Source: a phage. Taken from it: a DNA stretch of 64,000 nt. The stretch lies in the sequence record PZ445514.1, one strand, 5' to 3'. Below are positions 32,344-61,460 of the stretch, in pieces (positions within the stretch are counted from its first letter, which is position 1; every line of letters starts with the position of its first letter). Made by a program: the position numbers and the translations under genes. Under the pieces are notes generated by a model. It made no database searches. It was given only the letters and a program-made list of their open reading frames with translations, and was not told the DNA's origin.

Positions 32344-32607
32344 ATGGCAACAGAGTTAAAATTTGCATCAAACCGTAAAACTAAGAAGTATCTGTCTTCC
32401 GTAGCTCCAGGCACTGTGGTGATGTTTGTTGATGAGCTTGGGGATGTGAATACAGCACTTGTTGTAAAATCACATCCTGCAAACATATATGTTGGGGTAT
32501 TTGACTTGTTCAGAAAGGTGTTTGTAGAACTACCTCACAGTTTGGTTGTTACAGAAATGGATGCCTGCATAGAAATTCTTGGCGAAGTTATGGTGGAGGA
32601 ACAATAA
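32344..32607 (+). CDS. small protein, tandem paralog 1 of 4
   Basis: 87 aa; AAGGAGGAG upstream; shares K-F-x-C/S-G-x-V-V core with next three genes. Confidence 0.6.
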   Translation: MATELKFASNRKTKKYLSSVAPGTVVMFVDELGDVNTALVVKSHPANIYVGVFDLFRKVFVELPHSLVVTEMDACIEILGEVMVEEQ

Positions 32608-32870
32608 TGGCTACTAGCATTGTATTCAATTCTAAGGTGAAGAACAAAAAGCGTGCAGACAGCTTCCCGTGTGGGACCGTGGTAAGTTGTGACGGAGACG
32701 GCATTCAAAACATAGTTATGATTGTCAAAACAGGAGAACATTGTGTGTGGGGGTTTGATTTAGAAAATAATGAGTTGTACGATCTGCCACCAAACATGAA
32801 AGTTACAGAGCTTGACACCAAAATTACCATCCTTGGAGAGACAAGCTATTCAAAAGAAGGAGGAGAATAA
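32607..32870 (+). CDS. small protein, tandem paralog 2 of 4
   Basis: 87 aa; TAATG stop/start overlap; GGAGG upstream. Confidence 0.6.
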   Translation: MATSIVFNSKVKNKKRADSFPCGTVVSCDGDGIQNIVMIVKTGEHCVWGFDLENNELYDLPPNMKVTELDTKITILGETSYSKEGGE

Positions 32871-33133
32871 TGACCACAAAAATCACTATCGCAGAACCGA
32901 AAGCTAACACTCAACCTATCGAAAAGTTTAAATGCGGTGAGGTGGTAACATTCACACCAGATAATGAAGATGCTAAGATTTTCGCCATGGTCACAGCAGA
33001 GTGGATGTGTGACAACACCACACAGGTTCTGCGTTTTGACACCTATCTTACCGATGAAATCAGGAACGACAAGATCGTGACTGGTGTGGATACTGAGATT
33101 GTTTTCTACAAGAGCTTTTTAGAGGGTTTCTGA
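32870..33133 (+). CDS. small protein, tandem paralog 3 of 4
   Basis: 87 aa; TAATG overlap; GAAGGAGGAG upstream. Confidence 0.6.
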   Translation: MTTKITIAEPKANTQPIEKFKCGEVVTFTPDNEDAKIFAMVTAEWMCDNTTQVLRFDTYLTDEIRNDKIVTGVDTEIVFYKSFLEGF

Positions 33134-36706: not shown

Positions 36707-36907
36707 ATGGCTGATTTTTGTAAAGATTGCTCTGAAGAGTTGTTTGGCTTTGACTGCAAAGATTTGGAAGGTCTGATCACTGAGGATCAGTGGAAGGAAG
36801 GCTATGCAGCACCTGTTATTTGTGAAGGTTGTGGCTATACCTATGTTGACCATAAAGGTAAGCGCGTCAAGCCGTCTGAAGATGGGGCATGTTGGGAGTA
36901 TTACTAA
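36707..36907 (+). CDS. putative zinc-ribbon protein
   Basis: 66 aa; CxxC pairs (CKDC, CEGC); GAGGA upstream; followed by strong terminator. Confidence 0.55.
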   Translation: MADFCKDCSEELFGFDCKDLEGLITEDQWKEGYAAPVICEGCGYTYVDHKGKRVKPSEDGACWEYY

Positions 36908-36912
36908 CTATA

Positions 36913-36946
36913 AAAAGAAAGGGGCCAAACGGCCCCTTTTTTATTT
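36913..36946. terminator. bidirectional rho-independent terminator between convergent operons
   Basis: GGGGCC-AAAC-GGCCCC flanked by AAAAAGAAA and TTTTTTATTT, between plus gene ending 36907 and minus gene ending 36956. Confidence 0.65.
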
Positions 36947-36955
36947 ACCCCCTTG

Positions 36956-39900
36956 TTAACGAGAAAAGGTTGCGTAGGCTTCTAGACGATACTGCTGGTC
37001 ACCAGGGAACATAACACCTATAGAGGCTGTCCCTAGAATCCTGCCTTCCTTTCCAGACTCCATTCTGAACCCTACCCATCCTGAACTCCTTGCAGCCTCG
37101 ATGTTGTCGCTATACCCGAAAGTGGCAAGATCGTCAACACCAGCCCCAAACAGCAACTGAAGCTGACTTCTAGGAAGCCCTATAATTTCAGGAATATACG
37201 CACCAAAGTACACCATCTGCCCTACCTTAGGACCGCTGCCGTACTCCATCGGTTTGCTTGTAGAGAAAGTCTTCATACCAGAAGTACCTGCCGGATTAGG
37301 GTATGCCCCGTTTGTTGCTGTACCTATCCACATTCTCCACTGTGGTGCCATCTGTTTGACAGTAAAAGATGTTGAAGACGTTTTGCGCCCTGCATCATCA
37401 GTAACTACAAACTTTATGGTGACATTCCCAGTAGCTTTAAATGTTACCAGCCCTGTGGCAGCATCCACTGTTGCAATGTTGGTATTACTACTTTCCCAAG
37501 TCTTTCTAATACCGGATACGTTGGAAGGGGTAATAGAAGGTTCCTGCATCTGCAGTTTACCACCCACAATCCCTATGCCGTTACCTGGGTTATACAACAC
37601 ACCAACTTCATCTATAATGTTACCTGCTTTGAGACTATACTTCCTTGAAAAGTTGTAGGTTCCGTTATAAGAGTGTGTCCCTGAGAAGGTGACATCTGCC
37701 TTCCCGTAAGATATGCAAACCAAAGCATACTTCCTGTCAGGCAACGTTTCCCCAGTCTCTGGGTGAGTTTTACCCACCTGGAACACACTCGGGTCAGTAG
37801 AGTCGTAACTATCGCTAATGGAGCTTGGACCGCCCATCAACTGTGACAAACAATTCCTTACCCATGTCCAGTTATTATCACTGGAGAAGTCCACAGTCAA
37901 ATCAAACACAACCCACTCATTCGGCTTCCACACAGGTGTTGCAATGGACTTGCCTACACCGCCTCCTTGGAGTGTTGCCGACTGTTCGGTGATCAGTGCC
38001 GCATAGGCCAGAGTTCCTAAACTCAGAGTCTGGCTTGCTGTCCTCACTACCTTAGAATCAGCATCTGTGAAGTTGTTGATGATTTGGAATGTACCATAAG
38101 TGTTTTTACAGGTAATTCTGGCGTTCAGTGTGTCAATCTTCCTCACATCTGCCATAGCAGTGTTAGACACAGAGAAGTCAGAAGCTTTAGCTGAGTTTGC
38201 CGCAACAGCAGGATCAACGTTAAGAGTTGCGTTGAACTGGCAAGCAGGGGTAACCAGCAGCTTGTTATCACCTATTTGCTTCCATGAAACACTTTGAACA
38301 GGAAGATTCCATTTAATACCTGAGAAAACTTTAGCAACCCTCGGCCCCAGAGCTCCAGTCCTGTTGTCTTTACAACACATAGACATGGTGATCGTTGACG
38401 GAGTGGCCTGACCAAATAATTGCTGTGCTTTTGCAGAGGACATGGTGTAGAAATTGTCCTTAACAAACTCATCAGCGGCTAAAGATCCATCAGCCCTCCA
38501 CCACTGGACCTGATACCCTGTTTTATCCCAACCACCGACCTGCTTCAAGTCCTCCCAGGAGATTTCTAGATCCCCGGTGGTAGGGTTGATTGCAGCAGTT
38601 CCTGGTGTTCCAGGTGACCACAATGGAATATCGAACCACGCTGGTTTAACAGACTGCACTGCGCTAGGGCCTATTGCGGCAGCAAGTTGCTGGCCCATCA
38701 ATACACGAGCATCTTTCACCAGACCCCACTCGATCATGGACCCAGAGTAACCTTCTTTCTTGTAGGCTGAGGATCCGTTCAAGTGGATAAGTCGGCTTGT
38801 GCCAAAGTTATATGCCCCGCCACCGTTATCATCTGCAAAATTGTATATGATTCTATCCCTAATATCCTTCCATGCCCTGCCGCCGATCTCGTAGTCATGG
38901 TCATAGCATCTTTGCAGCGTTGTCCAGCAAATGATCGCCATCCTTCTGCCGTCACTAAAGCCAAAGGCCTGATCGTTAAGCTCTCTCCACAAGTAGCAGT
39001 TAGTGGTCCACATAGCTCTGTGAATGTTGAACCAATTTATAGACCTGGCTGCATTGTTGTAGGCGGTGCCTTCTAGCGTAGGCCACACTGCATTAACCAG
39101 CATGTCCTCTGTCCCTGCGTCTATCAGGAATCCTCTCACTTTCTTACCCATTCCTACTCTATCCTTGGCAATCCATGAGCCGAACAATTTCAGTTTAGGA
39201 CCGATTACGGCATCCTCTGGATGCTCAAGAGAGACATACTTCAAGTATACTGTAGGATCACCGTAGGTGCCATCACAAACAGCTTTGTGCATGTTTTCAC
39301 CAAGGTCCAGACGGATACCTGTGAGAGTTTTGGTATCATCTGTGAACTTATCTGTCAAATCAAACTCGTACCACCACCACCCGGCTCCAAGTAAAACTTT
39401 CTTACAGCGTTTAGCGTCTGTGTCGGAGATTCTTTTATCCCCTGCATATGGCGAGTCTGCAAACTGGTAGTGCAGAGCAACTTCAAAAGGATGTGTGGAT
39501 GTCCCGTTTTCTGCAAGAACTTGCTTCCCGATCAGATCGCATTTAATAATCATCACGACACGTTTGTATCCATTGGCAACTGGAACGTCGAACGGATACC
39601 TCGCACCATCCATATTCGCATGCAAAGCTGCGAAATTTATGTATGGGTCAACAGCGTTACCTAAAGTTTCAGGCCCTGGGATCATCTTGTACTTCTTGAC
39701 CTGTCCCATGATATAGTCGCTGCCGTAGGTTGCAGCCTCGAAGCAAGAACCGCTGTCAGGCAGTTCAGCAGGACCCCAAAAGTATGCTCCGTAACAATTA
39801 TAGAACCATTTGTTAGGGTCATAGTTATTCTTGAAGGTCTGAACCTCGTTTGCCTGTTTCAACAAGAAAACCTGCGTATCTGTGAAGATTGCAGGGTTTA

Positions 39901-42592
39901 CTCTCGCCTGACGTGGAGGGTATCCTGTTGATTGGTTAAACCACTGATTACAAGAGTAATCCCTCATATAGTCATAATCAGAGTATTTGTTTGCATCCTC
40001 GTTCCAACACATGTTCAGGTTGGTACCGCCCATGCATACAATATATTCTGCGACATACTTATCACTTCTGGTAGGAATACCTATGAACCATCTGTTAACA
40101 GGCTCATCCCAAGCTGTGCGCTCATCTTTAACGCAGATAGCAATCCAGTCATGTGTTCCTGTTTTCTTGCACACATCTCGCTTCATGCCGTAGTAGAACT
40201 CTTTAGTATTCGGCTCAGGTGCATTTATCAGGTAACTCCATGCCTGGTCTGCATAGGTTCCATTGGTGCGAGGGTCATGATCAAAGGCATACATGATGAT
40301 CCTTTCCCCACCAAGATGTTCGCCAAGAGTAACTTTGACATTCACATCGCCGTAACCGTTGCGAACAACATCCATATTGTCAATAGAGATGCCTCTAGGG
40401 GTGTAGGCAATTTTCAGTGAGTTATCCTCACTAGTGCCTCCAAGGGTGATCCCTATGTTGTTTGTTGTCCCGTCGGCATATCTTACTGTAGCTTCCCAGC
40501 GTATTCCGAAATATCCTGCATCATGGCTAACAATTTTCAGTGTACGAGCACCAGAGTTAGGTTTTCCAGGATCAGGCCAAGGGTTTGGGTGTTCGTGAAC
40601 AGTCAACGATGTCCCGTTTTGTTCATTGACCTGCAACATTTTACCACCCCTTCCGTTTGGGTTGAACTCCCATAGGGCCTGTGTCTGCACCAAGTTATCA
40701 TAGGTATTTCGTCGCTGATTATAAATCTCTTGGGTAACATCATAAGTTACTGATCCAGCATCCATTCTATGGAGTCTGACCATATACGATGTATCCCCTT
40801 CTACTGCAGGCTGGGCCGCATTTAGTCCAAAGTATACAGTGTCATTAACATGGAACTGTTTGTTTCTACCGACAGTATGCCATTTACCATCAGACGGGTA
40901 AGCCGGGACAATAGTGTTCCAGTTCAAAGTCCTTGTTGTGTGGGTCCTGCCTGTGCCATGTTTGTCATGATAAGTTATTTTTACAGAGTACAGGCCACGT
41001 CTGTTAACATTCCTGTTATACTGGGTAACAATAACTTCGTTGGCTCCACCGTGGTTCCAGTTGGTAGAGAATTGGTAATTTGCATCTGTAACAACCGTGC
41101 CTGCAGCATTTACCAGTTCAATCTTGTCAATAATGAACGTGGCCCCTTCTGGCTGAGGCTTCAATTTCATCTTGACCGTATCACCAATGTAAATATTGCT
41201 AACGCTGCTAACACCGTTAACGTCGAAAATATCATCAACACCCCAACTGTCTACTGGGACATTTTTATACCAATTCTCAGGTACCTCCGTGAACCCTTGG
41301 CTATTAAGCCTGCCGCCAAACAGGTTATTAGAGCCTGCAAAACTTCCCCTTGGGATACCTGACCACCAAAGTTTACCATTAACAACAGTAAAGGTTCCTA
41401 AAAAACCTTCTCTGTGAATGCCTTGGAAATAAACACTCTCTGTCCAGCTAACTGGCAAACGTTGCTCAACATATTTAGCCGTAGCAAGGGCCTGGTAATG
41501 AATAAAATCGGCACGGGGGTTATTGTTTGCAGATTGTGCGCCAATATCGTTGCACAGGTTTCGAGAGAAGCCACGATACTGCTTGGTGCCGTTGTTGAAG
41601 AAAATACCACTGGTGCCATAGCCACGAGCCATTATTACTTCATGGGTGTAGGTAATATTTAATGGACGCCAGGTATCATCTCCCCAAACGTTTTGCCCGT
41701 AGAATACGTTAACAAGTTGTTGGTCATCAGGTCTGTGCATTCTTTGTGTTACAACCACTGCCCCGTTCGGACCGCACATGAACCCTTTCCACTCCTCATC
41801 TGCAGGAATACCTCTCAAATCGTCACGGGTAATCTGAGCAGGAGGCCAAACAAGGTCGTTTCTACTGTTGTTTCTCAGAAAATCGTACCCAGCAATCCAG
41901 AAACCTCTAGGACCACCGAAAATAACAGAGTTATCATGCACCTCACAGTTGATGCTTGGGTTTTTCCAAGGACCTGTTTCAGGATTTTCCGATGTTTCAC
42001 CAATCTTTACAGGAGTTGCATGCTGGTTTTTATCCACATGCAAAGATCCATAGGTGTTGTTACCAGATCCGTACAGGTGTAAAATGCCAGCGCCTTCTGC
42101 CTCTGCAATAACCCAGACCGTGTTGTTAATACCTCCCATCACCTCAATAAGGCGCTCTGGGTGGGTGTCAAGGTGCAACCCTTTAACGATCTGTTCAGGA
42201 AGAGGTGTCCACTCTCTTACACAAACATCATTACCGCCTGCAGCATCAGACCCAATAAGCCCTGCCGTGCAGCCGATGTAGAAAAACTGGTTATCAAAAG
42301 TTCGGATCACAAACGCACGGTCTGCTCTCCACACATGATCAACGTTCCAGGCAGCCTCGTTGGGATAGTTTATCGTGTCAAGATCCCCAGTGCGGCACTC
42401 TCCGAACCTGTTATAGCCCGTGATATTAAGTTGACCATCATCAAAAAGTATAGCTAAGCTATTTACATAGGATACTGTAGTGCTTGTGCCATCACTGTTG
42501 TCTATTGGGTATGACAGAACAGCAAGTTCCTTAATTCCACCCCTCTTATCGAGGAAATGACGACCAAGTTTTAGCAAAGGGATTGGAAGCAT
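36956..42592 (-). CDS. giant tail/host-recognition protein with Big_2-like Ig domain
   Basis: 1878 aa; Gly/Asn/Thr-rich beta-type sequence; Big_2-like segment NIATVDAATGLVTFKATGNVTIKFVVTDDAGRK; last gene of tail operon. Confidence 0.65.
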   Translation of the reverse strand: MLPIPLLKLGRHFLDKRGGIKELAVLSYPIDNSDGTSTTVSYVNSLAILFDDGQLNITGYNRFGECRTGDLDTINYPNEAAWNVDHVWRADRAFVIRTFDNQFFYIGCTAGLIGSDAAGGNDVCVREWTPLPEQIVKGLHLDTHPERLIEVMGGINNTVWVIAEAEGAGILHLYGSGNNTYGSLHVDKNQHATPVKIGETSENPETGPWKNPSINCEVHDNSVIFGGPRGFWIAGYDFLRNNSRNDLVWPPAQITRDDLRGIPADEEWKGFMCGPNGAVVVTQRMHRPDDQQLVNVFYGQNVWGDDTWRPLNITYTHEVIMARGYGTSGIFFNNGTKQYRGFSRNLCNDIGAQSANNNPRADFIHYQALATAKYVEQRLPVSWTESVYFQGIHREGFLGTFTVVNGKLWWSGIPRGSFAGSNNLFGGRLNSQGFTEVPENWYKNVPVDSWGVDDIFDVNGVSSVSNIYIGDTVKMKLKPQPEGATFIIDKIELVNAAGTVVTDANYQFSTNWNHGGANEVIVTQYNRNVNRRGLYSVKITYHDKHGTGRTHTTRTLNWNTIVPAYPSDGKWHTVGRNKQFHVNDTVYFGLNAAQPAVEGDTSYMVRLHRMDAGSVTYDVTQEIYNQRRNTYDNLVQTQALWEFNPNGRGGKMLQVNEQNGTSLTVHEHPNPWPDPGKPNSGARTLKIVSHDAGYFGIRWEATVRYADGTTNNIGITLGGTSEDNSLKIAYTPRGISIDNMDVVRNGYGDVNVKVTLGEHLGGERIIMYAFDHDPRTNGTYADQAWSYLINAPEPNTKEFYYGMKRDVCKKTGTHDWIAICVKDERTAWDEPVNRWFIGIPTRSDKYVAEYIVCMGGTNLNMCWNEDANKYSDYDYMRDYSCNQWFNQSTGYPPRQARVNPAIFTDTQVFLLKQANEVQTFKNNYDPNKWFYNCYGAYFWGPAELPDSGSCFEAATYGSDYIMGQVKKYKMIPGPETLGNAVDPYINFAALHANMDGARYPFDVPVANGYKRVVMIIKCDLIGKQVLAENGTSTHPFEVALHYQFADSPYAGDKRISDTDAKRCKKVLLGAGWWWYEFDLTDKFTDDTKTLTGIRLDLGENMHKAVCDGTYGDPTVYLKYVSLEHPEDAVIGPKLKLFGSWIAKDRVGMGKKVRGFLIDAGTEDMLVNAVWPTLEGTAYNNAARSINWFNIHRAMWTTNCYLWRELNDQAFGFSDGRRMAIICWTTLQRCYDHDYEIGGRAWKDIRDRIIYNFADDNGGGAYNFGTSRLIHLNGSSAYKKEGYSGSMIEWGLVKDARVLMGQQLAAAIGPSAVQSVKPAWFDIPLWSPGTPGTAAINPTTGDLEISWEDLKQVGGWDKTGYQVQWWRADGSLAADEFVKDNFYTMSSAKAQQLFGQATPSTITMSMCCKDNRTGALGPRVAKVFSGIKWNLPVQSVSWKQIGDNKLLVTPACQFNATLNVDPAVAANSAKASDFSVSNTAMADVRKIDTLNARITCKNTYGTFQIINNFTDADSKVVRTASQTLSLGTLAYAALITEQSATLQGGGVGKSIATPVWKPNEWVVFDLTVDFSSDNNWTWVRNCLSQLMGGPSSISDSYDSTDPSVFQVGKTHPETGETLPDRKYALVCISYGKADVTFSGTHSYNGTYNFSRKYSLKAGNIIDEVGVLYNPGNGIGIVGGKLQMQEPSITPSNVSGIRKTWESSNTNIATVDAATGLVTFKATGNVTIKFVVTDDAGRKTSSTSFTVKQMAPQWRMWIGTATNGAYPNPAGTSGMKTFSTSKPMEYGSGPKVGQMVYFGAYIPEIIGLPRSQLQLLFGAGVDDLATFGYSDNIEAARSSGWVGFRMESGKEGRILGTASIGVMFPGDQQYRLEAYATFSR

Positions 42593-42604
42593 TGTGTTCT
42601 CCAG

Positions 42605-42633
42605 ATAAGAAAACCGCCCCGTCAGGAGCGGTT
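42605..42633 (-). terminator. rho-independent terminator
   Basis: Minus strand AACCGCTCCTGACGGGGCGGTT followed by TTTCTT; downstream of gene ending at 42643. Confidence 0.5.
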
Positions 42634-42642
42634 AGATATATA

Positions 42643-44388
42643 TTAACGTTGTGCAATTACTACGTCTACGATATCACCAACACCACAATATGTTAATTGC
42701 AGCAAGGTAACACTATTAGCCTTGTTATTAATAACAGGTGTTGCCGACAGGATAGCATACTTATCGTGCAAAGTCACGTTGTGACCTACAGCATCCTGAA
42801 TGACATAGATAACTGCAGTGAATGGATAAGGTTTATCTTCCGCTGATGTCCCAGGCCACTGCCCTATTGTAAAATCCCCTTTCGCGTGGACAACATACAT
42901 GCTGGCCTGCCCGTTAGGTGTCCATGTCCCACTGGACGCGTCAACCTCCTCTAAGTCAAAATCTACCTTTCCTGCGTGGAAAGTAGGGGCAGTAATGGTT
43001 TTACCAGCCTCAATTTCTTGAGAGGTGGTTATCTTACCGCTGGAGTTAATGCCATTACAAACAAAGTTGACATTAGAGAAGTCTGGCAGCCACCCAGTCA
43101 CTGTGCCGGATATTTCAAGGTTGTGAAGGTAGGTGGTGCCCGTCCCTGCTGCGTTTAAACTAACATCTCCATTTACCTGCAAGTTTCGGGTAACGTTGCA
43201 GTTTTCAGAGTTTGCAGTTGTTGCAGTTAAAGTGGTGGTTGTCAGCTCGGTAATTGTACCTTTATTAGCTGTAAGCCCTTCTCCTTCAAAAGTTGCACGC
43301 TCATTAACTCTTAAGGTATTCAGAGCTATGTTTTGGATAGAGGCTGTACCTCGAATAACTACAGATCCACCAACCTCCAAATCGCCATTTATCAATGCGT
43401 CACCCGTGCTTTCAATATAGCTAGGGTAGATCATGGTGCCATCGACAGAGTAGGTTATCCCTGTAACAGTACCTGTCACCTCAAGGTTCTTAACCCTGGT
43501 GGTCCCATCGACCTGCAATGTCGGTTCGGTTGCTGCCTTCATGGCATTACCACGAATGTACACGTAGTCAAAAAAGTTATTACCCAGACCATCAAAATGT
43601 ACATCGTTATTATTAGCCACTGGTTTCCCAGAAGTTATAGTGTCAGCTATAATCCTGTGGGTAGACACTTCATGAGGTTGCAGCTCTGTGCTTCTCCAGT
43701 CTGCATGCTTAGGATCACTCCACGCAAAAGTAAGTGTAGAAGTATTTGCCGTGAGGATTAGGTTCCTGAAGCGTGCAGTAGAATCTGCTCCATTAACAGG
43801 CCCATGTAAGGTGAGTGTGCCCCCAACTATGGTGTTAGCAAGTTCTGTAAGACCTTTTACCACCAAAGACCCTACAGTAACTTTCATCCCCTCCATGGCT
43901 TCAAATATGCTATCCACATAGTCAACAACAAACTCTGTGTTTGCTATAGACTCAGACTTATCGTCCATTGGAGGCGTAGGTACTCGCGGGTCACCTTCGA
44001 ACCTCGGACTGTTAAGTTTTGCGTAGTATTTTGCCATTACTGCAGAGTCGGTATATAATCTCCAGTTTGGAGATTGTGAAGGATCTGCTGGCATTCTAAC
44101 CGGGTTAGATTTTGATGCTGCGGGAGCGTACCACCACTGAGGGCCTGTGTCCCCCTTAAACTCGTACAGCTGGTTAAAAACTGTTGTGGATGCACCATAC
44201 GCCCAAGGGATCGGTGGCGTTTTAAAATAAAGGGTGTCAAGCATGGCTTTTCGTACCGTAGGGATGGTGGTCCCATCCTCTACGACAACTTCATCCACAG
44301 CGTTACCGTTGACAATCAGGTGCAAACGTTCAGAATCAACAATTACTTGATCTACCGCCTGCTCAAAGCTTGTCATGTCTTGCGCCAT
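42643..44388 (-). CDS. putative tail fibre / receptor-binding protein
   Basis: 581 aa; repetitive G/T/N-rich beta segments; AAGGAGA upstream; terminator downstream. Confidence 0.6.
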   Translation of the reverse strand: MAQDMTSFEQAVDQVIVDSERLHLIVNGNAVDEVVVEDGTTIPTVRKAMLDTLYFKTPPIPWAYGASTTVFNQLYEFKGDTGPQWWYAPAASKSNPVRMPADPSQSPNWRLYTDSAVMAKYYAKLNSPRFEGDPRVPTPPMDDKSESIANTEFVVDYVDSIFEAMEGMKVTVGSLVVKGLTELANTIVGGTLTLHGPVNGADSTARFRNLILTANTSTLTFAWSDPKHADWRSTELQPHEVSTHRIIADTITSGKPVANNNDVHFDGLGNNFFDYVYIRGNAMKAATEPTLQVDGTTRVKNLEVTGTVTGITYSVDGTMIYPSYIESTGDALINGDLEVGGSVVIRGTASIQNIALNTLRVNERATFEGEGLTANKGTITELTTTTLTATTANSENCNVTRNLQVNGDVSLNAAGTGTTYLHNLEISGTVTGWLPDFSNVNFVCNGINSSGKITTSQEIEAGKTITAPTFHAGKVDFDLEEVDASSGTWTPNGQASMYVVHAKGDFTIGQWPGTSAEDKPYPFTAVIYVIQDAVGHNVTLHDKYAILSATPVINNKANSVTLLQLTYCGVGDIVDVVIAQR

Positions 44389-46134: not shown

Positions 46135-46719
46135 TTAGAGGGTAGGTCGCTCCGGGAAGAAAATGTCAGGGGCTTTAGATGTATCTATTTCAAGAAGTTT
46201 TACCCTGTACATTTTCAAATCTCTGATGTTACGTTTCTGGTCATCAGTAAGATCATATTCAAGGTCAATCATGTCTTGATAGGCACCAATTCTAGCAGTA
46301 GCCCAAGCAAGTTCTGTCTCTATGACACCCTCTGCCTGTTGAACAAAGAATTCATTGTCTGTGACAAATTCATCACCAACTAAACGCAAAGCGTCGTGGT
46401 GAAGCATAATGTTTTCTGGTACCTCTTCTTTTTTGGCGATAACCACACGAAGACCTGGAGCAGGCCATAAGGCATCAGGTTCTTCTGTAGATGTCTTAAG
46501 AATTCCCTTTTCGTCAACAAGTAGGAAGATACAACCCGGATTTTCTTGTCGTAATGTTCGTGACTGCACATACCAATCGCCATCATCATTACGTAAAAAA
46601 TACCCAGTGTATGCGGTGTAATCCTCAACCTCTTGAGGGGTCAGCTCTTTGGTTTCCTTGTTGGCGTGGTATTCGCCAGATCCCGGCTGGTAAAGTTTAA
46701 ACTCTTGAAGTATTTTCAT
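46135..46719 (-). CDS. tail fibre assembly protein, lambda Tfa-like
   Basis: 194 aa; C-terminal KMYRVKLLEIDTSKAPDIFFP resembles lambda Tfa [21 protein letters not shown] from memory; directly downstream of tail fibre B. Confidence 0.65.
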   Translation of the reverse strand: MKILQEFKLYQPGSGEYHANKETKELTPQEVEDYTAYTGYFLRNDDGDWYVQSRTLRQENPGCIFLLVDEKGILKTSTEEPDALWPAPGLRVVIAKKEEVPENIMLHHDALRLVGDEFVTDNEFFVQQAEGVIETELAWATARIGAYQDMIDLEYDLTDDQKRNIRDLKMYRVKLLEIDTSKAPDIFFPERPTL

Positions 46720-47786: not shown

Positions 47787-49859
47787 TTATGAGAAGTCTG
47801 GCGGGACAACATCTTCTACATACCCTTTCAGAGCAACCTGCCCCATATGAAGCACGGTAGAATCTCTAGCGGTAACAGTGATGCTGTCAGACATTACTTG
47901 CGGGTATGCCCACACATACTGTTTTACCTCAGGGTATCTATACTCTATAGTTGCCATGTTTCCGCAAATACATCTCCATAAAAATTCTTGGTAATTCCTA
48001 GTTGGGTCGTAGCCATATACCGGAGCAAGCTCTTTACTAGGAACGAACCCTGCAAGGTATTGTATTTCAGACGGTTGCCAACCTAACTTAACGATAGGTA
48101 TGTTTACAGACTCTTTTGCCTTTTCAATACCTCCCTGCATCACCCAATCGTAGCACTCGGTGCAGAAGAAATCAAGAGCACCTGCTTCCTTTTTATATTG
48201 GTCAGCAAGGTTCAGCTTTTGTGTAAGCTCAGTTTCCATAATGGTTGGGAAAAACAACAAAGCTGTCATCTGAGCTGATGCAGCGTGTGCCTTTATTGCC
48301 TTTGAAATAGCCGCAATACGAGCGCCAAGCTTACCACGACAAAATGCTACATACTTGTCGTAAACACCGCCAGTTTTAGGATCGTCAATAGTCCCAATAT
48401 CTAATGCATACTCACCTGTCTCATCATAAAACGCCTGTTTTGTAGGGTAATCATAAATACAAGGTCTACGAGTATCGGTATTGTACCACCACCACGGTTC
48501 ACCAACCTGCATAATCACTGGCAGGTTGTTTCTCATAGCGGCTGATGCAAAATTCTTAAATACTGCAGTAAGGAAATTCATACCCTCTTCAATGGTTGGA
48601 GACAGGAGGTAGCTACAAGGTGTATACCCTGTTTTAGCGTAGTTATCGTTCCAGTCTCTTTGGGTCCATTCCAACGGGCAGGCATCGCTGAAAAGCTCAA
48701 AACTTACAGATTGCATAACGTCGAAGTTATGTCGTTTGGCATTGTACATAAAATCATCATGCCATTTATAAGCTGCAGCGTTTAGCGCTCCTGTTCTGTT
48801 TATAGACCATTGGGTTCCTGACCATGTGTAGTCATAATAATGACTCATACCAACATAATGGTTTATGGTTCCGGTATAGCCCAGACGCTTGATATTGTTC
48901 AACACCCTTAAAGGAGATACGTTCCACATATCGTCATATGCGGTGCAGATCCCAACGTCGTGCTCTCTCACCTGAATATTGTTAAGTTGCATCATTTTCC
49001 AGCCTGTGTCTGGCTGAAGCAGATCTAGGCGCAACTCACACTCTACGTTTTCCGTTCTCGGGTCTGTGCTGTTACTTACCCAGTCTTTAGGCATAAGCGG
49101 TATTAAAATCCTTCTCACCTGCCGAGGATCAACACCCATCATGCTGTTGTTCTGGTCCATCCCGACGCAGTCCTCAAAATCAATATGAATTTCTGCAACA
49201 TTCTTATCCTCTGAGATGCTGACAGCATATTGAGCTAAAGGAACATAGATGATTGTGCCATCAACAAGGTCTACAGTCATAATCATCTTTTCAGGAGTGG
49301 AGAAGTTGCTGGCGTTGGTTATTGACATTCTGAACCAAAGCTTGGTATTTCTCATCTCATAATGATCATCAAACCCAATACCGAAATGATCATACTTGTC
49401 AACTGTTTCCCAAATGCACCCGGCCATACCTCCATATGTTCTTGACACTAAACGGTTAATACAACAGTTATTATCTGCAACAATACAGGTACTTTCAGTC
49501 TGCTGAGTAGTTGTAACCCAATATCTTGGGTGGAACATTCTCTCCTCAACAGTATCCCAAGATATCCTGTCAAGATTCTCATCTGAAACTATTGTACATT
49601 TCGCCCTTTGTGTTCCAATCATCACCCCTTGGGATTTTGATGAAAACTCCATAAAGAAGCTTCTTGGCAACCTATTGGGTAATTTGTCAACAATTTCCAC
49701 CGGGATCTCAATACTGGTTGCCCCAATTGGGATAGTTACATCGCCCTCAACATGATTATAATCCCTACCAGGAACGGCAGTATCCTGAACTGTTCGGTAA
49801 TGAAACTGTGCAGCCATTGTAGAGTAATCACGGTAAGGTTTAAAAACAGCTGTTGCCAT
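47787..49859 (-). CDS. putative tail/baseplate-associated protein
   Basis: 690 aa; N-terminal Calx-beta-like segment GDVTIPIGATSIEIPVEIVD; W/Y-rich; function unknown. Confidence 0.55.
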   Translation of the reverse strand: MATAVFKPYRDYSTMAAQFHYRTVQDTAVPGRDYNHVEGDVTIPIGATSIEIPVEIVDKLPNRLPRSFFMEFSSKSQGVMIGTQRAKCTIVSDENLDRISWDTVEERMFHPRYWVTTTQQTESTCIVADNNCCINRLVSRTYGGMAGCIWETVDKYDHFGIGFDDHYEMRNTKLWFRMSITNASNFSTPEKMIMTVDLVDGTIIYVPLAQYAVSISEDKNVAEIHIDFEDCVGMDQNNSMMGVDPRQVRRILIPLMPKDWVSNSTDPRTENVECELRLDLLQPDTGWKMMQLNNIQVREHDVGICTAYDDMWNVSPLRVLNNIKRLGYTGTINHYVGMSHYYDYTWSGTQWSINRTGALNAAAYKWHDDFMYNAKRHNFDVMQSVSFELFSDACPLEWTQRDWNDNYAKTGYTPCSYLLSPTIEEGMNFLTAVFKNFASAAMRNNLPVIMQVGEPWWWYNTDTRRPCIYDYPTKQAFYDETGEYALDIGTIDDPKTGGVYDKYVAFCRGKLGARIAAISKAIKAHAASAQMTALLFFPTIMETELTQKLNLADQYKKEAGALDFFCTECYDWVMQGGIEKAKESVNIPIVKLGWQPSEIQYLAGFVPSKELAPVYGYDPTRNYQEFLWRCICGNMATIEYRYPEVKQYVWAYPQVMSDSITVTARDSTVLHMGQVALKGYVEDVVPPDFS

Positions 49860-57659: not shown

Positions 57660-60600
57660 TTACTTCAGTTTCTCTTGCAATCCAGTAACAACCTCTGTCA
57701 ATTTTTTAACCTGCTCCTCAAGGGCGGTTATTTTATCGTCCTGTTCCCTGCAAACCTGGACAAGCAAGCCTGTTACAGCTGCGTAGTCAACGTTATAGAA
57801 CCTTTCCTCGGTCATCAGAGGAATACCGTCTTGAGTAGGACCTTCTATTTCCTTCCTTTTCACGAAAGATCCTACTGCCTCTGGCAATGCTTCCATAACC
57901 TCTTGAGCAATCACGCCTGCATAAGGCATACCATTCTCTTTCAAGGTGTAGGTATAGCCTTTCATCTTTCTAATTGCTTCCAGAGCGTTAGGTATGACCT
58001 CTATATTATCCTTCAGGTCTCTATCGGAACTTTGGCTAACAGTGGTACATTCTACCGTGCCGTTGACAGCAAAATATCTTGATTTAGCCTCATCTGCCTT
58101 AGCTCCGCAGTGGAATACCCAGCTGGCGGCTGTTGAGTTATCACTTATCTGAAACTCAAGCACATTCTTCCTATCAGCGCCATTACCCCAATAGTACAAC
58201 CTGCCTGTATTAGAAGGCATGTTCGAAGTGTTGGTAACATCAGTACCACCACCTGTGTGTATTGTGAACTCAGGTTCAAGATTGGACCCTTGAGTTTTTA
58301 AAGTGATACCCTTACCGCCAAGCTGCTGCCAATGGCCCCATGTGAAAACACCACCTATCGTTGTTCCATAACGCAGGAATTTTTCTCCAAGATATGTTGT
58401 ATATTCCTGTACGCAACTCTCTGGAACGTTGGCATAGTTTCTATAGACAAGGAGAGTACCTGCCTGAGAGCATGGGTAGTTTCTATCAAGTGCGGCTTGA
58501 GCATTGGCCTCCTGATGATAAAAACCCTCTCTATCTCCTTTGTAGTCGTTAAGGTCATTAGTTCCCAACCCTTGTCCACGGTGCTGAATAACTTTGTTCC
58601 ACGCTCTGTGGTTTCCCTGCTCTATGGAACGAGTGTACAGCTGGTCTAAACGACCTGCCATCTGGAAAGCGTAGTTTCCAGAAAAACCAACCGACAACCC
58701 TGCTACAACCATGGAACCTTCAGGTCCGTTGACGTTACCAGCCATTATTTTAGAAGGGTTGTTATTCCCGAACTGGTTGTTCCAGTCTGCACCTGTGTGG
58801 CATACAAAACCACCAGGAGCTGAGAAAGTGCCATCTTTGTTGAAGTTGTAGAATCTGTGAGCAGAACCTACAACATCACGAACAATAACTTGACCAGCCT
58901 CTGGAGTAGATCTGAACTCTGCCTGACCTTTGAGACCAGCACCATTACCGCATTTAGAGGTAAACGTACCGTTAGTCAGATCCTCTGTCCCATCGGATGC
59001 ACACTGGAATCCTGCATTAGAGAATAACGCCCTTCTAGGACTGCCGTAGCACAAATAGTCAAGGCCGTCTGCCCATAGCTCGACTTTTGGCATATTCATT
59101 TTGCTCATCACAGCATAGCGTTCAGCAGTGCCTATATAGTGCCACTGTGTGCCGCCACCAGTGTAGAACCCTGAAGTACCTTTGAAGTCAACAATAGGTC
59201 TGGTATTGGTGTTGTTATCTCCAAGAATAGCAAGATTCAAATCTGCTGACTGAAGAGGTGCAACGAACTTAACCCCATCCTGATTGTCTGTTACAGCCCC
59301 GACCTGGTAATCTTGCTCTCTGGTAAACACTTCGACAACATTTCTACTTGCGTATATGCTGACAGGGAAAGCACGAGCCTCTACATAGAAAGCAACATAC
59401 TCTTGTTTACCCCTTGTTGGAGCAACCATCCCAAGAAGTGCTTTTTCATTCTGGTAGAAATTTACTACCCCGTAGAAAGAGTCTCCCCTGTCCGTCCAGC
59501 CACCAGTTCTATAGTGACACTGCAGGGTGGCACAGTTCATAGGGTCATTTCCAGATGAAGACCTGGTGACTATGGTAATATCTGTACCTGTCGAAGGGGC
59601 GTAATACGGATCTGTTCTAACGATAATTGGGTAGTATTTCCCATCTTCCATCCCTGCGGTTCTTGGCAGTGTCAAGAAGTCTTTTACACCTGCTGCTATA
59701 GGAACTTTGAACAGATTCTGAGCATCTGCTAAAGTTGTAGCCCCAGTGCCGCCTGCGGCTTGAGGTAAAGGTTCCCACTTGGCCTTCCGGTTGTTATAAA
59801 CACCCCATTCCAGAGTGCCGTTACCGGATTCGTCCATCCCACCATCCCAGACAACCATCTTGGCGGCTTTCTTAGACCCCCAGAAGCCTCTTTCTGCCCC
59901 TGAACTACGGATCCACTCTCCAAGTCCCCAGTTTGTCAGCTGACCAGTAAGATCCCCAACCTGCATGTATTTAGGGCAGTCTAATACACCGTCTTCGCGG
60001 AAACCCAAATATCTATGAGTTTCAGATCCTTTTGCACCTTTGTGCAGGTGGATTGTCAACCAAGCCTTATTGTCGTTTCTTACTTCAGAGTAGATCCTAT
60101 ACCCGTGCTCAAGGACACCGTCAGCGCTGTATTTGTCCCCGTTAACAATACCTGATGCCGACTTAACATCAGCAGAACTTTGAGACAGGTAAAGGTGCCC
60201 GAAGGTAGGGGTATTTCTAGGCCCAAGACCGATGTGCGATCTAAAGGTATCATCGTTACGAGGTCTGACCATCGGCTGCCATGCAGTCCACTGGTTTGTG
60301 TTGGCCTGATAGGTTCTCAAATACCAAACATCTACGTTAGAGAATGGATAGTATTCCTGACGACAACCTGTACCGCCGTTAGCATTGTTCTGCCAAACAA
60401 TCAAGTGACCAGCACCAGAACCTGCAGGGTAACCATTTGCCTCGGTTGCATAAGCAGTCATCGGTTGGTAGTATACACCATCCTGATTACCAGTCAAGTT
60501 ATTGATATTGAAATTTGGCTCAAGGGCTGCACGTTGCTTATAGAAAGCCCCCAAGTTAATGCGTGCACCTGCGGCATCCCTGGCACCTGTACCGCCTTGC

Positions 60601-61460
60601 TCTATAGCAAGAGGTTGCCACGAGGCTGTTTGTTGGTTCCACATGCCCCAACGGCCTGTTGCGTCAAGCTGCAAGTACCCTGCCGTGTTTAAGTCATCTC
60701 CAGCACGGATAACTGTTCTTGTTGGGTTATTTGCCTCTAGGCGTTTAAATTCATCACGAAGTGCTATTCTTTTTGTTGTTGCCACACCGTTGGTTACTGC
60801 AATGGTATACATGGCTCCTGAAGTAGCGCCACGGAAAATACCATCAACAGTTGTAGTATCACGACGAGATACCACACCATTCAGAAATTTTTCACCAGCT
60901 GCTACAGAAGGGTAGTTGGTAGTTCTTCCCTCTTCAATAACTGCAGGGCCAACAAAGTTATCAAGGTGAATAACATCGCCTACAGTGTGCACTGTACCAA
61001 AATCTACACGCTGTGCAAGGGCTTTAGCATCGTTAGCTGTCTGAACAGTAACATCCATTACATCCTGGACAGACTGCCCTTCGGCTGTCATAATCATAGA
61101 TGCGCCAATGGTAGATTCCAGCTCCTCCCTTAAGGACGGATCTGTATATACCATCCATGCAGCGTCAGTAATCCCACCATCGGAGTACGGTGAAGATAGT
61201 GCAGGGACAGTGTGTGGAAATTCGCCTTTCCAACGCAGGTAGAGGTCTTCCTCTTCGAAGTAGGCAAAATCCATTGGGCCGTTTAACTTACCACCTTCCT
61301 TAAAGGAGATTACATGAGAAACAGTCCCATCCACATGGACAACATCGCCAATTTTTACACGACGAGTCAGGTCTGGTTGTTGAACAACCAGGTAATCATC
61401 CTCTGTCACTGCGGTAGTGGCAGGAAGAGATTCAATTCTGACAACTTTAATATCAGCCAT
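57660..61460 (-). CDS. tail fibre/tailspike with C-terminal intramolecular chaperone (peptidase S74-like)
   Basis: 1266 aa; C-terminal SDRDLKDNIEV...GYTYTLKENG...GVIAQEV followed by coiled coil matches the auto-cleaving chaperone of L-shaped fibres and endosialidases. Confidence 0.75.
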   Translation of the reverse strand: MADIKVVRIESLPATTAVTEDDYLVVQQPDLTRRVKIGDVVHVDGTVSHVISFKEGGKLNGPMDFAYFEEEDLYLRWKGEFPHTVPALSSPYSDGGITDAAWMVYTDPSLREELESTIGASMIMTAEGQSVQDVMDVTVQTANDAKALAQRVDFGTVHTVGDVIHLDNFVGPAVIEEGRTTNYPSVAAGEKFLNGVVSRRDTTTVDGIFRGATSGAMYTIAVTNGVATTKRIALRDEFKRLEANNPTRTVIRAGDDLNTAGYLQLDATGRWGMWNQQTASWQPLAIEQGGTGARDAAGARINLGAFYKQRAALEPNFNINNLTGNQDGVYYQPMTAYATEANGYPAGSGAGHLIVWQNNANGGTGCRQEYYPFSNVDVWYLRTYQANTNQWTAWQPMVRPRNDDTFRSHIGLGPRNTPTFGHLYLSQSSADVKSASGIVNGDKYSADGVLEHGYRIYSEVRNDNKAWLTIHLHKGAKGSETHRYLGFREDGVLDCPKYMQVGDLTGQLTNWGLGEWIRSSGAERGFWGSKKAAKMVVWDGGMDESGNGTLEWGVYNNRKAKWEPLPQAAGGTGATTLADAQNLFKVPIAAGVKDFLTLPRTAGMEDGKYYPIIVRTDPYYAPSTGTDITIVTRSSSGNDPMNCATLQCHYRTGGWTDRGDSFYGVVNFYQNEKALLGMVAPTRGKQEYVAFYVEARAFPVSIYASRNVVEVFTREQDYQVGAVTDNQDGVKFVAPLQSADLNLAILGDNNTNTRPIVDFKGTSGFYTGGGTQWHYIGTAERYAVMSKMNMPKVELWADGLDYLCYGSPRRALFSNAGFQCASDGTEDLTNGTFTSKCGNGAGLKGQAEFRSTPEAGQVIVRDVVGSAHRFYNFNKDGTFSAPGGFVCHTGADWNNQFGNNNPSKIMAGNVNGPEGSMVVAGLSVGFSGNYAFQMAGRLDQLYTRSIEQGNHRAWNKVIQHRGQGLGTNDLNDYKGDREGFYHQEANAQAALDRNYPCSQAGTLLVYRNYANVPESCVQEYTTYLGEKFLRYGTTIGGVFTWGHWQQLGGKGITLKTQGSNLEPEFTIHTGGGTDVTNTSNMPSNTGRLYYWGNGADRKNVLEFQISDNSTAASWVFHCGAKADEAKSRYFAVNGTVECTTVSQSSDRDLKDNIEVIPNALEAIRKMKGYTYTLKENGMPYAGVIAQEVMEALPEAVGSFVKRKEIEGPTQDGIPLMTEERFYNVDYAAVTGLLVQVCREQDDKITALEEQVKKLTEVVTGLQEKLK

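Follow-up and report, generated by a model that had tools for sequence, protein, structure and literature searches.

What does the largest gene of the fiber locus do for an rV5-like coliphage? We addressed this question in a 64,000-nucleotide stretch of phage DNA (sequence record PZ445514.1; here called the window), in which an open reading frame (ORF) of 1878 codons occupies positions 36956..42592 of the minus strand. Few coliphages are isolated as often as the rV5-like phages, which serve in O157 typing, biocontrol, and therapy cocktails. The genes that build each fiber of their "Swiss army knife" are not yet settled in the literature. Our analysis tentatively suggests that the product, gp27, could be a low-copy structural protein, borne on the virion as a nonessential accessory adhesin fiber. 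We rate this as a serious possibility, just short of probable. None of the points made here about gp27 is a conceptual surprise. What the analysis adds is the assignment of an RCC1-like propeller, a module resembling carbohydrate-binding modules (CBMs), an orphan middle third, and recurrent natural disruptions of the gene.

The ORF starts with ATG and encodes 1878 amino acids plus a stop codon. Chance can be ruled out because the open frame is so long. An initial annotation of the window had claimed an ORF of this size that closes the tail operon, and this was correct: the ATG frame was confirmed, and the gene is the last of a minus-strand tail-fiber cluster. Its DNA is 100% identical to that of Escherichia phages rV5_ev147 and rV5_ev156, and the protein has 100% amino acid identity to VUF53492.1 of rV5_ev147. 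Size, position, and synteny identify the gene as orthologous to rV5 gp27 (YP_002003529.1; 1878 amino acids, 208,334 Da), and the two proteins are 92.5% identical. About 110 Vequintavirus records have 80 to 95% nucleotide identity across at least 80% of the gene. In a PHROG search, phrog_15684 covered residues 1 to 1878 of 1878 (4477 bits). Gene order around gp27 is the same in rV5_ev147, in CarlMeissner, and in a contig whose gp27 is 41% identical. Database names for the orthologues range from "hypothetical" and "Ig-like domain-containing protein" to "lateral tail fiber protein with intimin domain" in the BASEL collection (bas48_0041). We searched the literature for experimental work on gp27 function, host range, or evolution experiments with this gene and found none. 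The protein is thus far catalogued but uncharacterized, within a well-known group of phages. The protein had also been described as rich in Gly, Asn, Thr, and Trp. It is enriched, although mildly: with 21 further ORFs on the minus strand of the window as the reference, G is at 1.24-fold, N at 1.28-fold, T at 1.14-fold, and W at 1.59-fold, with E at 0.63-fold. About 15 records in the MG0656xx series ("Campylobacter phage A147, C9, D#," etc.), labeled as Campylobacter jejuni phages, are 90 to 94% identical to the gp27 gene and have Vequintavirus-sized genomes. Some of them are UNVERIFIED and unannotated, and they are probably mislabeled or contaminant coliphages.

Is gp27 part of the virion? The initial annotation had proposed virion proteomics as a check, and the orthologue is indeed there. 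A published analysis of rV5 by multidimensional protein identification technology (MudPIT) lists 19 proteins. The product of locus 27 is one of them, detected by 3 peptides (9 spectra; 3.1% coverage). This mass spectrometry (MS) evidence comes from the rV5 orthologue (92.5% identical) and not from the present isolate. The L-shaped tail fiber protein gp41 also yielded 9 spectra, compared to 2030 for the major capsid protein and 1077 for the head decoration protein gp61. Thin 70-nm fibers were "occasionally seen" on rV5, and they cannot be assigned to gp27. An O177 "proteomics" paper was set aside as virion evidence because it is in silico only. Cryo-electron microscopy papers on phi92 and phiTE were also set aside as a source of localization, with no gp27 homologue assigned in them. 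The phi92-like phages give no localization for gp27 because they have only an Ig (immunoglobulin) segment in common with its Phapecoctavirus counterpart (see below).

The spectral counts also bear on where gp27 might sit. T4 Hoc has Ig-like domains and is dispensable, and gp27 could be a similar head or neck decoration or whisker that adheres to mucus or environmental glycans. In agreement with this, gp27 has Ig-like domains and appears dispensable (see below), and its C-terminal 285 amino acids match phrog_215, "structural protein with Ig domain," which is filed under head and packaging. However, 9 spectra compare poorly with the 1077 of gp61, the N-terminus of gp27 matches phrog_11922 ("tail protein"), and the gene closes a tail-fiber cluster in four genera. 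We consider a Hoc-like decoration very unlikely.

We found gp27 disrupted in five viable plaque-forming isolates, two of which have large deletions (0.7 and 2.9 kb). APECc02 lacks residues ~440 to 1416 (2.9 kb) and also has a frameshift, whereas in V18 residues 91 to 316 are deleted and there are several further frameshifts. The other three have a stop codon at W82 (W82*; nomine), a frameshift at residue 763 (naswa), and a frameshift near residues 1777 to 1792 (DrSchubert). Sequencing error is possible for these three single-site cases and unlikely for the two large deletions. Furthermore, the known receptor is attributed to a different protein. The minus-strand gene at 47787-49859 encodes a 690-amino-acid fiber protein with the phage N4 gp65-type domains NCTSP_N and TIM-barrel_NCTSP (PF23845, E = 4e-80), plus Calx-beta. 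The N4 gp65-like fiber has been tied in the literature to the N4 glycan receptor/enterobacterial common antigen (NGR/ECA), the primary receptor of Vequintavirus on K-12. Because five disrupted isolates are viable and NGR is attributed to another fiber, gp27 appears not to be required for infection of laboratory hosts. Even so, purifying selection is strong over its full length. Among ten orthologues, the rates of nonsynonymous (dN) and synonymous (dS) substitution were 0.040 and 0.447 (dN/dS = 0.089). Therefore, gp27 appears to be dispensable for plaque formation in the laboratory yet under selection in nature, and it is lost recurrently in laboratory stocks. This is relevant to host-range engineering. 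It also matters for the quality control of stocks meant for therapy, from which a factor for fitness in vivo may vanish unnoticed during laboratory passage.

The same observations weigh on the BASEL annotation, by which gp27 would count among the three canonical lateral tail fibers, which are trimeric, and would determine host range as a primary receptor-binding protein. Its position in the lateral tail-fiber locus, its presence in the virion, and a conserved N-terminus followed by variable distal parts would all fit, as would the "moderate allelic variation" described in the literature. However, gp27 is disrupted in five viable isolates, and the K-12 receptor is attributed to a different fiber. 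Pfam found no Peptidase_S74 chaperone in gp27, although it did in the product of 57660-61460; coiled coils and beta-helices were not specifically looked for. Neither Peptidase_S74 nor Caudo_TAP was found in or next to gp27, and no assembly-chaperone gene is adjacent. Finally, Big_2, Ig-like arrays, a CBM-like jelly-roll, and an FN3-like domain are typical of monomeric beads-on-a-string proteins and are the domain types of monomeric surface adhesins. A canonical trimeric fiber is therefore an unlikely identity for gp27.

The best-conserved portion of gp27 is at residues 1 to 450 (41243..42592; all gp27 segments are on the minus strand), and it is presumed to be virion proximal. It consists of a conserved N-terminal peptide (MLPIPLL...) and what we assign as an RCC1-like beta-propeller. 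The initial annotation had hinted at a beta-propeller from YGSGNNTYGSLHV-like repeats. This motif recurs about seven times, as a G-x-N/G-x-x-G type, at residues ~59, 107, 153, 175, 226, 341, and 391/412. No RCC1-family Pfam match was found in gp27 itself at E ≤ 1, but several gp27 homologues have weak matches to PF25390 (E = 2e-4 to 3e-3), and the precomputed Pfam annotation of protein P0021 lists both PF00415 and PF25390. The clearest link is through the Phapecoctavirus protein ukendt gp231 (L003 9001-11673), which matches PF25390 (E = 9e-11) and PF00415 (23.9 bits; cutoff, 21.7). Residues 1 to 197 of gp27 are ~40% identical to it (E = 2e-27), and the alignment stays collinear up to about residue 440. 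Weaker N-terminal matches were to 4MG and Cronobacter GAP31. In Foldseek searches with the N-terminal model, the best 12 matches were all RCC1-type propellers (UVR8, HERC1, and HERC2, then RCC1 and Kti13), with E values of 4e-5 to 1e-4 over 200 to 375 columns, TM-scores of ~0.3, and a model pLDDT (predicted local distance difference test) mostly below 60. Therefore, the hint of a propeller now has a family, RCC1, and by transitive homology and Foldseek on a low-confidence model the assignment is supported but not proven. RCC1, UVR8, and the RCC1-like domains of HERC1 and HERC2 are seven-bladed propellers that resemble this region in repeat motif and as top fold matches. They differ in having the direct Pfam match that gp27 is missing, and the phage-virion context and presumed role of gp27 are unrelated to theirs.

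The Phapecoctavirus/Seunavirus terminal "tail protein" (ukendt gp231 and PVP-SE1 gp40) is a close parallel. Like gp27, it is the product of the last gene of the tail-fiber cluster, has an MxPIP N-terminus, an RCC1-like propeller, and Big_2, and varies in its distal part. Unlike gp27, it has only 890 amino acids. In ukendt gp231, the C-terminal "FxGCTSLTxIP" repeats resemble leucine-rich repeats (LRR) or PARCEL (by eye and by a weak NCBIfam match), and repeats of this kind stand in place of the ~1400-amino-acid array specific to gp27. Within this counterpart family, residues 1 to 584 are conserved, and the last ~300 amino acids are exchanged among isolates that are otherwise 96 to 98% identical.

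The remainder of gp27 is largely a chain of predicted beta-domains. We modeled it with AlphaFold2 (AF2) as monomers from alignments of 18 sequences, with mean pLDDT values of 47 (residues 1 to 960) and 56 (residues 760 to 1878). These models are weak because the alignments are shallow; word-indexed searches, run with the N-terminal profile and with the last 294 amino acids, contributed almost nothing. Residues 455 to 840 (40073..41230) have AF2 strands throughout, with pLDDT values of 60 to 82 at residues 737 to 845 and lower values elsewhere, and homologues have weak Bact_surface_Ig-like matches at residues ~506 to 558. This region probably forms three or four Ig-like or beta-sandwich domains. 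Next is a conserved Cys/Trp-rich segment to which no fold could be assigned (residues 841 to 964; 39701..40072; pLDDT <35 over residues 838 to 937). Residues ~965 to 1125 (39218..39700) are predicted to form a beta-jelly-roll that resembles CBMs and lectins. The predicted structure has the CBM-type beta-sandwich fold, but there was no Pfam match to a curated CBM family in gp27. Residues 1126 to 1331 (38600..39217) are predicted to be helical and have invariant columns; the fold was again not assigned (pLDDT <35). Residues 1332 to 1433 (38294..38599) form a beta-sandwich in the AF2 model (strands with pLDDT 55 to 78), labeled FN3-like by eye from the sequence pattern. Then comes a variable beta domain (residues 1434 to 1590; 37823..38293), which has indel hot spots and is replaced in distant homologues.

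The C-terminal part begins with Ig-like domains (residues 1591 to 1760; 37313..37822). A Big_2-type Ig segment had been noted in the initial annotation, and Pfam agrees: PF02368 matches residues 1682 to 1733 (37394-37549 in the window), with a score of 35.4 bits that exceeds the gathering cutoff of 22.8 (E = 1.1e-8). The segment also has the Ig-like beta-sandwich fold. The last domain, also beta (residues 1761 to 1878; 36959..37312; pLDDT 41 to 71), is more diverse than any other part of gp27 and presumably forms the distal tip. The precomputed annotation of this C-terminal region lists PF26918.1 in three orthologues (P0001, P0024, and P0025); this family is absent from the Pfam copy that we used. 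Foldseek searches with the C-terminal half returned generic tandem-Ig arrays, among them NUP210, cadherins, S-layer proteins, a glycan binder of the SusE type, and the tail of SU10. Sequence searches of the PDB, whether with the full protein or with profiles of the N-terminus (A3) and the middle (A2), recovered at most the Big_2 segment. No internal domain duplication emerged when 12 segments were compared all against all with hhalign. PADLOC gave no match, and NCBIfam gave just a 39-amino-acid intimin-like stretch. We rejected the description of gp27 as intimin-like, since one Ig domain alone is in common. Sequence similarity to the Big_2 adhesins intimin, invasin, and Lig, and to the Ig arrays of the Sap and SbsC S-layer proteins, is confined to one segment of ~50 to 65 amino acids. 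Furthermore, gp27 does not have the beta-barrel anchor or C-type lectin tip of the bacterial adhesins. The "intimin domain" label therefore overstates the relationship.

The middle third is where an enzyme could reside. About 330 amino acids (residues 838 to 937 and 1126 to 1331) defied modeling, and an exhaustive hidden Markov model (HMM) search of 1.84 billion representative proteins with residues 841 to 1433 found gp27 family members only. With ~600 amino acids that have no homologue outside the family, gp27, the largest gene product of the fiber locus, is a well-defined structural target. The initial annotation had suggested a multidomain receptor-binding protein or depolymerase, and the second possibility would make gp27 an enzymatic fiber in which the family-restricted residues ~840 to 1330, with a helical region next to the CBM-like module, are a new glycan-cleaving or -modifying fold. 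Such modules usually accompany catalytic ones. The core of the helical region, residues 1161 to 1200, keeps 75 to 82% identity in homologues that are 41 to 58% identical overall, and its invariant residues include E1162, D1163, N1186, W1187, F1188, N1189, H1191, and R1192. The invariant residues counted in favor of an enzyme, in or near this core, are E1162, D1163, H1191, R1192, E1235, E1280, and E1288. Neighboring fiber genes also bear glycan-active domains. However, no hydrolase, lyase, esterase, or other catalytic domain was found in gp27 by any sequence or fold search, the unmodeled residues 840 to 1330 (pLDDT <35) provide no positive evidence, and viable APECc02 lacks the entire segment. 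Therefore, an enzymatic fiber is improbable. We are slightly more doubtful of its most specific version, in which residues ~840 to 1330 hold a new glycan-active catalytic fold beside the CBM-like module and gp27 is a monomeric adhesin-depolymerase of a kind undescribed for phage fibers. We rejected "depolymerase" as the default reading. An adhesin role is plausible with the qualifier "accessory." Overall, the structural hints of the initial annotation held up well, and its interpretation is supported in part.

We also asked whether variation among gp27 proteins fits an accessory adhesin anchored at its N-terminus. Among annotated phages, full-length gp27 was found only in Vequintavirus, and 110 phage records span at least 80% of the query. 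A search of 5.8 billion proteins yielded 15 clusters with 41 to 93% identity, mostly from unannotated assemblies. The N-terminus alone is common to gp27 and the terminal tail proteins of Phapecoctavirus and Seunavirus. The most diverse parts of the protein within the genus are a propeller loop (residues 241 to 300), the jelly-roll (961 to 1140), and above all the C-terminal tip, where amino acid diversity is 0.23 and dN/dS is 0.34 at residues 1741 to 1800. The jelly-roll region is a hot spot of allelic variation and is present in two allelic types in distant homologues, with conserved flanks. The C-terminal 294 amino acids fall into two allele groups, ~95 to 99% and ~80% identical. A conserved N-terminus and variable distal modules are the polarity expected of an N-terminally anchored, host-facing protein. 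Synonymous divergence is also uneven: dS is 0.075 for codons 1 to 60, 0.07 to 0.25 for codons 661 to 840, 1381 to 1500, and 1681 to 1740, and 0.8 to 1.1 for codons 61 to 420 and 961 to 1260. Because dS varies from 0.07 to 1.1 among segments, we conclude that gp27 is a recombinational mosaic, with frequent exchange and conserved "linker" stretches.

We can now outline how an accessory adhesin of this kind might work. The conserved N-terminus (the MLPIPLL peptide and RCC1-like propeller, residues 1 to 450) would dock gp27 to the tail or to the baseplate fiber network. From there the beta-sandwich domains would extend outward as beads on a string, about a dozen globular domains in all and perhaps ~50 nm long. 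The jelly-roll (residues ~965 to 1125) and the Ig-like/C-terminal tip (residues 1590 to 1878) might then make weak, reversible contacts with surface glycans. The phage would thereby encounter cells at a higher rate ahead of engagement by the dedicated fibers, these being the N4 gp65-like NGR fiber (47787-49859) and short fibers for the lipopolysaccharide core. In this outline we infer the attachment site, copy number, oligomeric state, glycan ligand and binding, and absence of enzyme activity. There are precedents. The side fibers (Stf) of lambda, the L-shaped fibers of T5, and Hoc of T4 are dispensable accessory adhesins, and phage Ig-like domains are weak glycan binders. Like gp27, these proteins are virion borne, have Ig-like or other adhesin domains, and are kept under purifying selection in nature, although laboratory stocks lose them easily. 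The differences are the much greater size of gp27 and its additional propeller and CBM-like module. There is no sequence homology, and the glycan binding of gp27 is presumed.

Is there a sign that gp27 is made at a low dose? A terminator-like hairpin lies at 42612..42633 on the minus strand, between the gp28 stop codon and the gp27 start codon. It reads AACCGCTCC-tgac-GGGGCGGTT, followed by a T-rich tail. A Shine-Dalgarno sequence, GGAGAA, is at 42597-42602, after the hairpin and before the gp27 ATG. Our scan for terminator-like hairpins upstream of gp27 found 1 site compared with 0.0 ± 0.2 expected. The hairpin is identical in six Vequintavirus genomes, and in the relative with 41% identity two pairs have changed in a compensatory manner, so that the stem is retained. 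The hairpin may act as an attenuator that limits the gp27 dose or as an mRNA stability element. A conserved terminator-like hairpin just upstream fits the low dosage proposed for gp27.

At its other end, gp27 converges with a block of plus-strand genes that ends at 36907. The intergenic space contains a hairpin at 36918..36939, AAAGGGGCC-aaac-GGCCCCTTT, with a 9-bp GC-rich stem and T-runs on both strands. The terminator scan marked it on the minus strand, and the plus-strand tail, TTTTTTATTT, was taken directly from the sequence. With T-runs on both strands, the hairpin is read as a bidirectional intrinsic terminator between the converging genes, as had been claimed from the outset.

The upstream neighbors of gp27 form a long minus-strand run of tail and tail-fiber genes by PHROG matches. 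The nearest, gp28 (42643-44388, minus strand), had no match in the Pfam copy used. Its homologue in a distant contig (L004 6211-7965) has precomputed matches to PF26208 and PF26209 (Phage_phiTE_241_N and _C), and gp28 is absent from the rV5 virion MS table. A tfa-like gene (46135-46719) is located among short-fiber paralogues. Farther upstream, the minus-strand gene at 57660-61460 encodes a 1266-amino-acid fiber protein with an N-terminal Tail_spike_N domain (an adaptor of the TSP1/Gp66 type) and a C-terminal Peptidase_S74 intramolecular chaperone. This domain pair points to a branched fiber network like those of CBA120 and G7C. On the plus strand at 32344-33133, three abutting ORFs encode 87 amino acids each. 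They are diverged paralogues in tandem, the other two being 38% and 18% identical to the first, and have the common motifs MxT...G.VV...D...VT..D..I; they are called hypothetical in relatives.

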